From the IMG/VR virus record IMGVR_UViG_3300032212_000074, positions 1 through 37,501 of that record: 37,501 nucleotides of DNA; one strand, written 5' to 3'. This document shows positions 2,555-37,361 of this stretch, in pieces (within the stretch, counting starts at the first letter, position 1; every line of letters starts with the position of its first letter). The notes under the pieces were generated by a model. The model did not search any database and was not told the origin of the DNA. It saw only the letters and a program-made list of their open reading frames with translations. Made by a program: the position numbers and the translations under genes. Source of the stretch: a virus. Taxonomy: Duplodnaviria; Caudoviricetes.

Positions 2555-2707
2555 ATGAGCGAGTTAAACTTGCCAGCAGGCAAAACATGTAAAGATTGTG
2601 TTCACTGCTATAGGTGCACAAGAATGTTTGGCGTGAAAGAAACGAATGTTGAATGTGATTTTTATCCGGTATTGTTTCAGGAGAAAGCAAATGAACCCAA
2701 TAAATAA
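2555..2707 (+). CDS. 50-aa Cys-rich metal-binding protein
   Basis: MSELNLPAGKTCKDCVHCYRC...CDFYP; purine-rich RBS. Confidence 0.65.
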   Translation: MSELNLPAGKTCKDCVHCYRCTRMFGVKETNVECDFYPVLFQEKANEPNK

Positions 2708-2885
2708 CATACAAGACCTAATAGCCTCGGCTAATCAGGCGCAATACAACATACTCAGAACCACGCCAACCAGCGCAGGCTGCTGCATGAGCCACGATGA
2801 TATAAAAGCCGTCATGAATCTATCAGATGGTGCAGCGGAAGGCTGTCGGGCGCAATTTGCGATTGAGATGGAGCGGATGCGATGA
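2691..2885 (+). CDS. hypothetical protein
   Basis: ORF track 2646..2885; AGGAG RBS favours MNPINN start at 2691. Confidence 0.65.
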   Translation: MNPINNIQDLIASANQAQYNILRTTPTSAGCCMSHDDIKAVMNLSDGAAEGCRAQFAIEMERMR

Positions 2886-3097
2886 AGCCAAGAGAAAAGA
2901 AACCGGATATTGTTTATCGCATCATTGATAAAGAGACAGGAAAGGCGTGCGGTTCTTACAGTAGAGCATACTGTGATGAATATGATTTTTCATCGGAAAA
3001 AGAGGCTAGAAACGCTAATTTTCACGGCATGTTTAAGGATGAAGACAAATATGGAATTGCTAAATATAAAGCAACGTATGAGCTATTAGAAGACTAG
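2882..3097 (+). CDS. hypothetical phage protein
   Basis: ORF track; ATGA overlap. Confidence 0.7.
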   Translation: MKPREKKPDIVYRIIDKETGKACGSYSRAYCDEYDFSSEKEARNANFHGMFKDEDKYGIAKYKATYELLED

Positions 3098-8469: not shown

Positions 8470-10385
8470 TATCGTGACATCTCACGCTGAGTCTGCGGCA
8501 CCACCTGTCCTGTTATAGAGCCAGAAATATGACCCCTGATTTTATTCAAGTCAGCTTTAGATATGCCATGCTTCATCAATGACTCAAGCTGCTTTTTAGG
8601 TATCTTGTGTACTGGCGTGGACATTAATCGGGTTATATCATCAATAACCACTTGTGGCACGACCTCAACATCTAAGACGCTTTTAACTGCGTTGCCCACT
8701 TTTGTTATCGCATCACTGCCTTCCATGTGAATAGCTTTACCGCCTTTTATAACATCAGCAAGGTCAGATTCGCCTTGTAATCGTGGCTGCGTTTGTGACC
8801 CGCCATATATTTTTTGATAGGTCTGTGCGAACTCATCCTCTATATCCAATCGATTAATAAATTGATTAAAAGATTGATCATCAGGGAAAGCGCCACGAAG
8901 CCTCTCTCTAACTAACTGAGAGGCTAACTTTGTTGCTGTATTTGATGATTCGCGCCCTACCATTAACTTATCTCGGATAGTCTTAACAGCTCCGCTTATA
9001 TAAGCCTCCTGTTCTGACTTTGATAGGCTAGCTAGGTTGTCCGATACAAAATCAGCATCTTCTTTTAAAATATTACGACCTGATTTTATCGCGTCATCCA
9101 AAGCGGATTCACCAGCCCATATTTTACGACCAGCCGCATAGTTAGGGTTTTTTGCAGATAGCTCATCAATGATAATTTTGTGCATCTTTTTGTAGGCGGC
9201 ACCTAGTTCGTTATCACCTGCCTTATATTTTGTATTTGAAGCGGCTCGTAGTTGTCTTTGTAAAGAGTGCAATTCTTTAATTGATGTCTTGAATACCTTA
9301 TGCTCACCTTTACCTTTGGTAAATTCCTTTAACATTCCTCTCGACGGGTTGTAATCGTCAACTACCGATTGAACCTTATTAAATACGCCTACCATATCAT
9401 CAGTAGACAATGACTCTTTTTTGGCTGCCTCATACAATGGGCTTGCTTCCTTGAATCGTCTATCGACTATTGCCTTCTGGTTCTTAAAGAAATTCTCATC
9501 ACCGCCTGATAAGCTACGGAGCGACTTCATAATCCGTTTTGTAGCCCCTTTCTGTCTTTCTGCAAATCCTTTCAAGGCCGCTGTTTTTTGTGAGCCACCT
9601 TTCTGAGCTACCGTCATTGCCAATGATTTTAGGTTTTGACCACCCACATCGGATAGCGTAGCCTCTGACCCCATTAACCGAGCCGCTTTAATCATTTGTT
9701 CAGGCGTGACCTCGTCTTGACCAGCATAATGACCGACTGTGCGACTAATAGTCGTTTGTGGCGCTTCTGGTTTTAACATTCTACCAACAGCACCCGCGCC
9801 CTTACTTAAAAGCTTGCCAGCATAGTAACCGGCAGGGGCTAAAGCAGCACCACCAGCAGCGCCAAGCCCAGCATAAGCCGGAACATCTTTCATTTCAGGC
9901 GCATAACCAGTACCCGATACAGCACCCCCAGCAGCGCCCAATCCAACAGCCGTTTTAACTGGGTTCATTTGCCCAAACCTAGATGCATAAGCAGCGCCAC
10001 CTGTTGGTAGTGCGGTTAATAAACCACCGGCAACATTAAGCCCTAGCGCAAGCCCTTGATTTTGTCTTTCAAACTCTTGCTGCTCACCGCTAAGACTTTT
10101 TTTAATATCTCTATACGATTCCTGCCAAGGGATATGCTTTGTCCGAGGGTCTGTTGTTGCTTTCATTGCGGCCATGAATGCGCCAATCTCATCAGCAAAA
10201 CCCATAGTCTGACCTTCAAGGAATGAACGAGTGCCGCCCAAAGCCTTCTCACCAGTCGTCAACTCTTTTGGAACATCAGTAACAGGCTTCGGCTTTTGTT
10301 TTTCGTACATCGATAAGACTTGTTCTTTTGTGTAGTCGTCCGGTACGCCTTCAATCAATGTTCCGTCTGGCATTGTTACATTCAT
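8469..10385 (-). CDS. internal virion/ejection protein (P22 gp16-like position)
   Basis: V.MPDGT..EGVPD N-terminus, QT.GFADEI motif, Gly/Ala-rich hydrophobic segments; synteny. Confidence 0.7.
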   Translation of the reverse strand: MNVTMPDGTLIEGVPDDYTKEQVLSMYEKQKPKPVTDVPKELTTGEKALGGTRSFLEGQTMGFADEIGAFMAAMKATTDPRTKHIPWQESYRDIKKSLSGEQQEFERQNQGLALGLNVAGGLLTALPTGGAAYASRFGQMNPVKTAVGLGAAGGAVSGTGYAPEMKDVPAYAGLGAAGGAALAPAGYYAGKLLSKGAGAVGRMLKPEAPQTTISRTVGHYAGQDEVTPEQMIKAARLMGSEATLSDVGGQNLKSLAMTVAQKGGSQKTAALKGFAERQKGATKRIMKSLRSLSGGDENFFKNQKAIVDRRFKEASPLYEAAKKESLSTDDMVGVFNKVQSVVDDYNPSRGMLKEFTKGKGEHKVFKTSIKELHSLQRQLRAASNTKYKAGDNELGAAYKKMHKIIIDELSAKNPNYAAGRKIWAGESALDDAIKSGRNILKEDADFVSDNLASLSKSEQEAYISGAVKTIRDKLMVGRESSNTATKLASQLVRERLRGAFPDDQSFNQFINRLDIEDEFAQTYQKIYGGSQTQPRLQGESDLADVIKGGKAIHMEGSDAITKVGNAVKSVLDVEVVPQVVIDDITRLMSTPVHKIPKKQLESLMKHGISKADLNKIRGHISGSITGQVVPQTQREMSR

Positions 10386-29324: not shown

Positions 29325-29801
29325 TCATAATGCCGCCTTTGCTGCGTATCGCTGCCAGTTTTCCATGAATTCATCGATAGTTCCAGCGCCATACACCGTA
29401 TTATATTTCAGCTTCCAATACTCGGCTAATCCTACAATATCATCTTTATCTGGCAGTGCTTCGGGTACTCGTAGGTAATGAACACGGCACATTATCGCAG
29501 CGTATTTAAGATTATAAACCAGTGTTTTGGGGTTATTAGATATGCACGACCTCAATACTTTTTCTTTTAATTCGTCTTGATAGGCTAGGTAATTCTCCCA
29601 TATATCGGCATGTGTCGCGCCTTCCATCTGAAAGACACCTTTAGCTATACCCGATGGCACTTGAGCTAAATACTTACCCATTGCTGACTCTTGAGCTGCC
29701 GTACCAAGCAATAAATTAACAGCCGCTTCACTGTATGCGTCGATTTCTTCCAGTGCTGGAATAATTACATAATCCCTGAGTTGTTTTGCGTCTATGCTCA
29801 T
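29325..29801 (-). CDS. endolysin, lysozyme/transglycosylase-like fold
   Basis: LLLGTAAQES (catalytic Glu-Ser), G.FQME..T, YWK..YNT..GAG. Confidence 0.75.
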   Translation of the reverse strand: MSIDAKQLRDYVIIPALEEIDAYSEAAVNLLLGTAAQESAMGKYLAQVPSGIAKGVFQMEGATHADIWENYLAYQDELKEKVLRSCISNNPKTLVYNLKYAAIMCRVHYLRVPEALPDKDDIVGLAEYWKLKYNTVYGAGTIDEFMENWQRYAAKAAL

Positions 29802-29820
29802 TATCTTTCTCTTTGTTAAT

Positions 29821-29939
29821 TGGTGGTCAGGCAGGCCGTTACCCCTGCTATGCCTTGAAAGGATGCTCTAGAGTTCTCGACCCTTAACCGGCTGATATGT
29901 CGATTCCTTATGCACGTCTACTTTCCGTGCTGCTGACCA
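29821..29939 (-). ncRNA. tRNA-like RNA with encoded 3' CCA, non-canonical
   Basis: Acceptor-like UGGUCAG/CUGACCA + CCA; D-like arm GCACG-GAAAGUAGA-CGUGC; T-like arm GCAGG-GGUAACGG-CCUGC; ~65-nt central domain. Confidence 0.7.
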
Positions 29940-29947
29940 TATAAATA

Positions 29948-30026
29948 AGCGCAAAACTATCTGCCTTCTACCACTTGTTTGGATGCTTTCGCAGATTCAA
30001 CAAGGAACTTTTGACAGTCTCACGCC
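29948..30026 (-). ncRNA. structured leader RNA with GAAA-capped extended hairpin
   Basis: 14-bp basal stem with 5 G-U pairs, CUUGUU/AACAAG stem, UGC-GAAA-GCA cap. Confidence 0.55.
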
Positions 30027-30033
30027 ATAGCCT

Positions 30034-30042
30034 ATTGTATCA
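30034..30042 (-). promoter_or_regulatory. extended -10 promoter, candidate late promoter
   Basis: TGATACAAT on minus strand, ~7 nt upstream of the structured RNA 5' end. Confidence 0.5.
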
Positions 30043-30056
30043 CGATTGATTAGTCG

Positions 30057-30194
30057 CTAAAAAAAATCAGTCAAAAACAACCACAAAGCAATAACCAGCC
30101 ATAAGCCAGATACGGGCTTATCATTTATCTCTAATATTGCAGCGCCAATGACAAGCGCAGAAAACGCAATAACATCTACTCTTATTCCTAACAT
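30057..30194 (-). CDS. 45-aa two-TM membrane peptide (not in ORF track)
   Basis: MLGIRVDVIAFSALVIGAAIL...GLWLVIALWLFLTDFF; GAGGTG RBS. Confidence 0.6.
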   Translation of the reverse strand: MLGIRVDVIAFSALVIGAAILEINDKPVSGLWLVIALWLFLTDFF

Positions 30195-36740: not shown

Positions 36741-37361
36741 TTAGCTAACGCCTTTATTAAAATCTATAGCCATCTGTTTTGCATCTGCCATTGTTTTTGC
36801 TATCCATTCGCCTCTGCCGCATTTAATCTCATAGAAATCATCTCCAACTATGTCGATTTCTTCTGGCTGCTTTCCAAAACCTTCTCTATCAAGATAACTA
36901 TCAAGTTCCATTAAATCATTAACTACAGGTATTTTTACCGGATGTGGAAGTATTCTAATACCGCTTCTATCTGGCAATATCTGGCATTCAGCCCTTTTAA
37001 GCTCTGCACATTCTTCTGAAATATCCGCATAGAAGGCAGCATGGTCATCTATCAAATCCTCTGGTGTTTTTGGTACATAATGACAATGACCTTTTTCGCA
37101 CTCTGAACCAACCTCAAACCCATAGATAGCACGATGACTCCATCCATACCACTTGTTATCCTTTGGACTAAAGCCAACGCCATGTGTTAACTCATCTGTA
37201 ATCTCACGATCTGCTAGGTATTTAATATTATCTTCCATTCCAACATGAGTTATATAGCTGTCATCAAAATTGCTTTTATAAACTTCTGACATTTCGCCAT
37301 TGCCAATAATATCTATTGTGTCTATGTATGCGACCTTGTTTAAATAATCTTGTACTTTCAT
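36741..37361 (-). CDS. conserved hypothetical phage protein
   Basis: GFS....KWYGWSHRAIYGF motif; AAGGAG RBS. Confidence 0.75.
   Translation of the reverse strand: MKVQDYLNKVAYIDTIDIIGNGEMSEVYKSNFDDSYITHVGMEDNIKYLADREITDELTHGVGFSPKDNKWYGWSHRAIYGFEVGSECEKGHCHYVPKTPEDLIDDHAAFYADISEECAELKRAECQILPDRSGIRILPHPVKIPVVNDLMELDSYLDREGFGKQPEEIDIVGDDFYEIKCGRGEWIAKTMADAKQMAIDFNKGVS

Follow-up and report, generated by a model that had tools for sequence, protein, structure and literature searches.

What would be the role of a phage RNA that has the acceptor stem, the D-like and T-like arms, and the encoded CCA end of a tRNA, and carries other sequence in the place of the anticodon arm? This question is raised by a locus on the minus strand (29821..29939) of the window, that is, the entire stretch of 37,501 nucleotides analyzed here. 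The window is a 37.5-kb tailed-phage contig that encodes portal, terminase, and major head proteins, NinB/NinG, Gam, and SSB, as identified with PHROGs, and is estimated by CheckV to be 54% complete.

A tRNA-framed RNA element in a phage contig

The element occurs in a single copy in the record and scores 85.7 bits with the family model R1, the training set of which includes the window. It starts with the 5' strand of an acceptor-like stem, U(-1) followed by GGUCAG (29933..29939), which shows covariation in columns 8-15 of alignment A1 and is kept in a sibling contig from DNA run X1, a run that may be the source of the window. A 2-nt linker, CA in the window and CG in the family (29931..29932), leads to the D-like arm GCACG-GAAAGUAGA-CGUGC (29912..29930). 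The anticodon and variable arms are replaced by a 63-nt insert, or 'cargo' (29849..29911). The T-like arm GCAGG-GGUAACGG-CCUGC (29831..29848) follows, and the remaining segment (29821..29830) consists of the acceptor 3' strand CUGACC, the discriminator A29824, and the encoded CCA (29823-29821). The loop bases U29920 and G29921 of the D-like arm are predicted to pair with A29839 and C29838, respectively, of the T-like loop. If RNase P cuts after U(-1), the predicted mature 5' end is G29938.

A sequence-only reading had placed these parts in tRNA order, and sequence and predicted fold agree. The UGGUCAG/CUGACCA acceptor-like stem (pair probabilities 0.73-1.0), the D-like hairpin (0.98-0.99), and the T-like hairpin (0.78), which abuts the acceptor 3' strand ahead of the CCA, are all present in both the minimum-energy and the centroid folds. 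The folding energy is modest (z -1.88, with 9 of 200 shuffles equally good), so that folding by itself is no proof of the element. A descriptor derived from the family matched the window once and none of 300 dinucleotide shuffles. Neither ARAGORN, as had been anticipated, nor Rfam called the window element. When the end of the element is read as 7 base pairs plus CCA, no discriminator base is left; the tRNA-like register is best read as a 6-bp acceptor (GGUCAG/CUGACC) followed by A73 and CCA, with U(-1) opposite A73. The branched inner domain that had been proposed within the insert (AAGGA/UCCUU enclosing UCGAC/GUCGA) did not hold up: the two helices are nested, have probabilities of 0.01 and 0.06, and require a fold 5.1 kcal/mol above the minimum-energy one. 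The insert of the window has no relative and no confident fold, and no homologous insert was found with which these inner helices could be compared. A BLAST search of the element against cultured phages yielded chance matches only, the best of these lying in a SegD gene without the element.

A large family of phage-borne elements

A pattern joining both loop motifs matched 12 viral loci, at least two of which (L010 and L006) contain the whole frame. The T-arm pattern matched 75 viral loci; with the window added, an acceptor strand and a D-hairpin are found upstream in 60 of the 76 (about six of these frames look doubtful), compared to 10.7% of shuffles. Downstream of the 121 matches to the D-arm pattern, a T-arm and an acceptor 3' strand (score at least 13) are present in 106, compared to 7 of 1,210 shuffles. 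Another 12 and 23 loci came from two more D-arm scans and 11 from a metagenome scan, the last set including the window's own record, and the exact D-arm motif is estimated to occur in about 550 IMG/VR stretches. In bacterial genomes, only 5 of 120 T-arm loci carry the full frame, the remainder resembling chance matches in GC-rich DNA; the family thus appears to be mainly phage-borne. A plasmid search returned one record for one query and none for another, and the type represented by L015 was detected in 2 of 5,426 E. coli genomes, one of which was inspected and has it in a lambdoid pL region.

Unannotated members were identified in five cultured phages, Pseudomonas phages Persinger, PotUPM1, Orimi01, and D14H, and Ochrobactrum phage POI1126. 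In Orimi01, a hypothetical CDS (Orimi01_00061; L340:38907-39380, minus strand) runs from the first base of the element across it and is probably a misannotation. There is usually one element per record; one locus (L353:980-1304, plus strand) contains two in tandem, followed by a tRNA-like gene.

Rfam scans of the loci of this family and of a sister family described below matched none of the elements; the Rfam matches near members correspond to neighboring tRNA, tmRNA, Proteo-phage-1, and abiF. The insert of L038 contains a sub-threshold piece of DUF805b (17.4 vs 35.6 bits). In the 28.5 of 40.5 kb of phage BTP1 that were examined, neither the family nor the sister family was found (transcriptome paper PMC7067206, in the part available). 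No description of the family was found in a literature search that covered journals other than subscription ones, and the motif strings occurred in none of the papers searched. They were also absent from the searched supplements of PMC10690425; part of these supplements lies outside the search, so the family may be among the 10,006 unnamed IMG/VR candidates given in the accessible part of that work. The tRNA-framed elements form a real, conserved, and apparently uncatalogued family with kinship to tRNA mimics, a widespread group of phage RNAs overlooked by Rfam and ARAGORN as well as by the GenBank annotations that were inspected.

Covariation of the frame and an apparently rebuilt elbow

When 30 hand-picked members with short inserts were aligned by MAFFT on sequence alone, 98.7% of the cells paired and both-side changes were present in 16 of the 20 pairs, a result matched by none of 500 shuffles; in slid controls of the same alignment, 29-47% paired. 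The acceptor, D-like, and T-like stems all covary. The members were picked for having the frame, so stem pairing is partly selected, which does not apply to the loop-loop test. For that test, 157 matches found with the D-arm only were used; dropping 20 without a perfect T-arm with an 8-nt loop left 134 distinct elements. Position 6 of the D-loop and position 5 of the T-loop are C-G in 108 of these, U-A in 25, and U-G in one, with no mismatch (Fisher p 3e-26, uncorrected for kinship). The adjacent T-loop C is invariant (134/134) and faces a D-loop G that is fixed by the search pattern. Both the C-G and the U-A types are found inside two separate insert clusters, so the switch between them arose more than once.

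In tRNA, the elbow is formed by the contacts G18-U55 and G19-C56. In the family, this place is predicted to be occupied by a two-base-pair contact between the D-loop and the T-loop, of which the covariation would be the signature; with no mismatch among all these elements, the tRNA corner seems to be kept by new pairs. Furthermore, among 27 members, position 9 of the linker varies together with D-stem pair 3 (G with G-C in 19, A with A-U in 6, G with A-U in 2), a pattern that resembles the 9-12-23 triple of tRNA. The window element carries the A/A-U version of this covariation and the U-A version of the loop pair. Jointly, the loop pair and the 9-12-23-like covariation suggest that the frame folds into an L shape like that of tRNA. 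The tRNA elbow was apparently rebuilt with different base pairs, leaving an unusually clean case of tertiary covariation. The view that the element is a tRNA mimic that is conserved and lacks an anticodon arm, rather than a decayed tRNA, is supported by the covariation of three stems, the loop pair, and the placement of members among tRNA genes in large phages; collection of homologs and analysis of their covariation, as had been suggested, yielded a large phage family.

The rest of the frame departs from tRNA. The family T-loop is RGUARCGN (8 nt) and not UUCRA, in line with the sequence-only reading, and the D-loop is GAAAGYAGA, without GG18-19. The acceptor sequence varies freely, with pairing in 96%, 84%, and 65% of the members at positions 7, 8, and 9, respectively, and up to 25 bp in length. 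The CCA end, which had been taken for a defining trait of the element, proved not to be one in the family: among D-anchored members, 6 of 134 have it at the window's offset and 3 of 134 at the canonical one, numbers no higher than those for other offsets (2-6 of 134), which weakens the idea of a ligand for a synthetase or EF-Tu. One enterobacterial-type subfamily encodes 7 bp and ACCA.

The interpretation that we prefer, at roughly an even chance, is that the element is a trans-acting stable RNA in which the frame would set the ends and protect and display a lineage-specific cargo, in the manner of an engineered tRNA scaffold. The conserved outer frame, in its predicted tRNA-like L shape, would then be the carrier for a swappable insert.

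Hypervariable inserts

The 172 distinct inserts are 32-270 nt long and form 134 BLAST clusters, 125 of which, including that of the window, are singletons. The inserts representing the clusters are, on average, not better folded than shuffles (median z of -0.18, with 22% below -1), and no 8-10-mer is common to more than five clusters. Given the singletons and the lack of a widely shared word, many inserts could be tolerated filler. Conserved motifs in two subfamilies count against filler. An alignment of 14 members includes an invariant purine-rich insert motif with a small covarying hairpin and a RAACACAUC tail, across divergent acceptors. A 6-member subfamily from tRNA clusters has several invariant insert blocks; its insert helices show compensatory changes and, in some cases, broken pairs.

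The nearly invariant sequence of the frame across diverse phages, against inserts that vary, have that median z, and can be as short as 32 nt, and the presence of members among tRNA genes would also fit a frame that is active by itself, as a decoy or ligand whose elbow occupies a tRNA-binding protein of the host (RNase P, a tRNA nuclease or modifier, or the ribosomal E site), with the insert as filler. We consider this unlikely because invariant motifs and covarying helices are maintained in the inserts of the subfamilies and because the frame lacks UUCRA, has a pyrimidine at the G19-like position, and ends in a variable acceptor mostly without CCA. With loops and an acceptor end unlike those of host tRNA, the frame would be a poor mimic for enzymes that read those parts. 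Anticodon nucleases are specific for the anticodon loop, which the elements do not have.

An antisense role had been suggested as well. The C4 RNA is known to act through an antisense mechanism. In an RNA of the C4/CI type, RNase P would cut the frame out and the insert would pair with a short phage or host mRNA target; hypervariable inserts would suit private target tags, and C4 is a phage RNA reported to be a substrate of RNase P. This explanation is very unlikely given that the inserts show no excess of complementarity to their flanks: the longest complement is 6.9-7.1 nt within 300 nt (91 loci; 7.1 in GC-matched controls) and 8.2-8.5 nt within 1,500 nt (51 loci; 8.2-8.3 in controls), in a comparison that covers own flanks, not host targets, and has no power for split 7-nt targets. 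The best whole-genome matches of inserts in four genomes, 10-13 nt, are near chance, and there is no Rfam C4 match. For the window insert, antisense pairing with its own genome was rejected, the best match being a single 13-mer in a structural gene near 9578, also near chance.

Genomic context

In the window, the element heads a 24-kb same-strand block and is located 90 nt behind an extended -10 promoter-like motif, TGnTACAAT (30034..30042, minus strand), which was seen in the sequence and is absent from the list of the consensus scan; the predicted start is near 30027. A structured 5' leader (29948..30026, minus strand), with a 14-bp imperfect stem enclosing a smaller GAAA-loop hairpin (z -2.95), is common to the sibling contig. 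Beginning 20 nt past the element, at 29801, a 158-aa ORF (29325..29801, minus strand) is the first gene of the leftward lysis and structural block. It matches phrog_3108 (unknown function), whereas Pfam gave no match and a PDB sequence search nothing significant. Its predicted structure is lysozyme/SLT-like, with a TM score of 0.93 to a cluster named SLT and feature matches to SLT of only 0.84-0.85, so the ORF is a likely endolysin according to this model.

Just upstream of the promoter-like motif, an unlisted ORF (30057-30194, minus strand) encodes a 45-aa hydrophobic protein with two likely membrane segments, and an HNH-like ORF is located 440 nt upstream of the element. Elsewhere in the window, an ORF (36741-37361, minus strand) matches the Pfam family Tad6, which inhibits type I Thoeris (128.5 bits against a cut-off of 27), and accordingly is an anti-defense gene.

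The sibling contig matches the window at 29934-29998 and 29781-29831, that is, in the leader, both acceptor strands, the CCA, and the lysozyme start. Between these matches, it contains 165 other letters, compared to 102 in the window; this interior is known by its length only, and the membership of the sibling in the family is putative. Another run X1 contig matches 29991-30043, stopping exactly at the promoter-like motif. In run X1 records 3 and 6, the sibling contig, which has the promoter in common with the window as well, is more abundant and a different gene is found upstream of 30043.

Across the family, the neighborhoods are diverse. The neighbor scan covered 78 flanking ORFs, mostly of at least 100 aa, picked from 131 crude calls; the 40 with a PHROG match belong to every class (integrases, exonucleases, methylases, portal, terminase, capsid, and tail genes), with six HNH/homing endonucleases and only two lysis genes. 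Most of these named neighbors are co-oriented with the element. The suggestion that the window element is a processing signal for the endolysin message fits poorly with so few lysis genes and with a 49%-identical lysozyme relative that has no element upstream. The lysis linkage is incidental, with members located in tRNA clusters, in early operons, or behind their own promoter.

tRNA genes are present at 9 of the 60 loci scanned, and at five of these, the window not among them, the element is inside a tRNA cluster. In L237, L246, L266, and L209, it lies 1-5 nt from same-strand tRNA genes; in L237, for example, it is flanked by tRNA-Thr and tRNA-Gly at distances of 1-5 nt, and in L209, it starts about 7 nt past a TTGACA-17-TATATG promoter, with tRNA-Arg following 5 nt past its end. 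A -10 box 12-19 nt before the acceptor junction is six times more common than at positions further upstream (26/1,024 vs 64/15,185), and at 25 of 130 loci, its placement would let transcription start at the 5' end of the acceptor. The Persinger element is located after the integrase gene, with an extended -10 of its own and, downstream, a terminator and a gene in convergent orientation. Such arrangements are those of a free-standing RNA gene.

Some of these features would be expected of a cis element, either tRNA-like punctuation at which RNase P cuts to split or stabilize the message of an operon, or an RNA for put-like antitermination in the long late or pL operon: the co-orientation, the location of several members within pL early operons, the position of the window element behind the promoter-like motif at the head of the block, and the somewhat enriched occurrence of a Shine-Dalgarno sequence and start codon within 50 nt downstream (24/128 vs 36/398 background windows), which leaves room for cis effects. 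As an account of the family, however, this appears quite unlikely: in L237, L246, and L266, the element is among tRNA genes with no adjacent protein gene, the Persinger element is immediately followed by a terminator, with the next gene in convergent orientation, neighbors belong to every class, and a processing signal does not need inserts of 32-270 nt.

The homing endonucleases among the named neighbors (6/40), the HNH-like ORF in the window, and the heterogeneous contexts would be compatible with a selfish or decaying cassette of tRNA origin that is of no use to the phage and is spread through recombination or along with homing endonucleases. This is highly improbable: most records have one copy per genome, there is no MITE-like conservation of terminal sequences, and the tertiary pair without mismatches, together with the compensated stems, points to selection on RNA structure.

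Proteo-phage-1 RNA (Rfam) is located 150-210 nt upstream of a family element in L235 (1699-1779, plus strand) and of a sister element in L333 (3697-3776, plus strand), which suggests clustered RNA modules in pL leaders. In L010, a permuted tmRNA (2622-2895, minus strand) is about 1 kb from the family element.

Comparison with known tRNA-like RNAs

The closest functional analogy to the carrier reading is the tRNA scaffold engineered by Ponchon and Dardel for production of recombinant RNA in E. coli, which, as given in the accessible part of PMC3753655, keeps the acceptor stem, the D-arm, and the T-arm and accepts an arbitrary insert in place of the anticodon arm. Unlike this scaffold, the family is natural and phage-borne and has a 5-bp D stem, an 8-nt RGUARCGN T-like loop, a rewired elbow pair, a variable acceptor length, and mostly no encoded CCA, and its stabilizing role is putative.

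Class II tRNA (Leu/Ser; RF00005), which shares with the family the arm order, the 2-nt linker, a GAA..GYAGAC-like D-loop, a 9-12-23-like covariation, and the D/T loop contact (here deduced from covariation, with bases that differ from those of tRNA), is the likely ancestor. In contrast to class II tRNA, the elements lack the anticodon loop, U8, GG18-19, and UUCRA, and are not called by ARAGORN or Rfam; the anticodon stem-loop of RF00005, with its 7-nt loop, is replaced by the 63-nt insert in the window.

The T4 RNAs RnaC and RnaD (species 1 and 2 RNAs; NC_000866.4, 70908-71171) are likewise non-decoding phage RNAs, of about 120-140 nt, within a tRNA cluster. RnaC resembles the family in a CCGG T-stem and two internal AGUAGCGU stretches and differs from it in a canonical GGUUCGAAUCC T-loop and the lack of the family D-arm; model R1 finds neither RnaC nor RnaD. 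In the T4 rnaC gene (L387:1409-1547, minus strand), the two AGUAGCGU stretches, one of which caps a hairpin, are identical to a variant of the family T-like loop. The AGUAGCGU motif may be a general tertiary module of phage RNAs. The carrier reading bears on the old question of the role of non-decoding RNAs in phage tRNA clusters, RnaC and RnaD being examples.

C4 of P1/P7 (Rfam C4) and the P4 CI RNA are phage RNAs with a tRNA-like outline, C4 being reported as a substrate of RNase P in a work cited by PMC11143913. The family differs from these in having a hypervariable insert rather than two antisense loops, no local target, no tie to an antirepressor operon, and no Rfam match.

The bacterial YrlA Y RNAs (PMC4201824, accessible part) and tmRNA likewise combine, in a non-coding RNA, a mimic of the tRNA elbow with a second functional domain; the topology of the family is different, with no pseudouridine-type T-loop and no tag ORF. 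The Ro60 protein (PF25045) was found in none of five member records (two of them at least 90% complete; the positive control matched) nor in the PHROG and Pfam scans of the window, and there was no Rfam match to YrlA on the elements. tmRNA was rejected: there is no ARAGORN or Rfam call, the D-arm has a stem, unlike the stemless D-loop of tmRNA, and neither a tag reading frame nor G3-U70 is present. sRNA-Xcc1 (RF02221) presumably resembles the family; its model produced no match in the Rfam scans or in three whole records, nor in the control genomes. Its sequence is not given in the available parts of PMC2996969 and 10.1101/2020.03.17.996009.

A putative mode of action

The window element would be transcribed from the promoter-like motif near 30034-30042, and RNase P would free it from the 88-nt leader. 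RNase P reads the T-arm, a 12-bp ruler, U-1, and RCCA (PMC11143913, in the part available). The 6-bp acceptor, U(-1), and ACCA end of the window element would suit this enzyme; the acceptor and T stem together comprise 11 Watson-Crick pairs, compared to the usual 12, and the T-loop is non-canonical. In the family, acceptor pairing often extends beyond 7 bp and UUCRA is missing, so that cleavage by host RNase P may be inefficient or occur at other sites. Cutting or trimming at the CCA would produce the 3' end and would also separate the element from the lysozyme message. The tight elbow would then shield the insert from degradation, in the way of engineered tRNA scaffolds, and the insert would probably bind a host or phage protein in trans. 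Given that inserts change fast between phages and are conserved within lineages, the most likely partner would be a host RNA-binding defense or regulatory protein. Should the frame indeed be a carrier, the 'tRNA scaffold' would be a trick that evolved in phages, with every insert a candidate RNA effector.

A sister family

Phage PS-1 and locus L350 contain elements with the same layout as the family, in which the linker has 3 nt and the loops, GGCUGA(U) and AGAUCAGCA, are complementary over 5-6 bases, the D-loop being fixed by the search pattern. In PS-1 (L338:8905-9010, minus strand), the D and T loops are GCUGAU and AUCAGC; further loci are L395-L401 and L402-L522. This sister family is present in 189 cultured-phage records and an estimated 1,700 or so IMG/VR stretches, and its inserts are hypervariable as well, with 82 distinct inserts in 65 clusters. 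None of the sister elements has an Rfam match. They are found in the tRNA clusters of ZC03 and RCS47 and in the late leader of HK620, and in L350, a family element is directly followed by a sister element.

A broader, more speculative possibility, which we regard as somewhat doubtful, is that tailed phages of Proteobacteria use a natural modular chassis for RNA display, of at least two types (with 2-bp and 5-6-bp kissing elbows), whose hundreds of payloads are swapped by recombination via the conserved arms and would be hidden RNA effectors directed against host proteins, such as defense systems. If so, the payloads would be the RNA counterpart of small anti-defense proteins. Cultured carriers allow direct testing: Persinger, PotUPM1, and POI1126 for the family, and HK620, ZC03, and PS-1 for the sister family.

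Weak tmRNA-like pieces are located beside sister elements in IME11 (L401:92-240), UPM 2146 (L395:96-246), and HK620 (L397:196-324).
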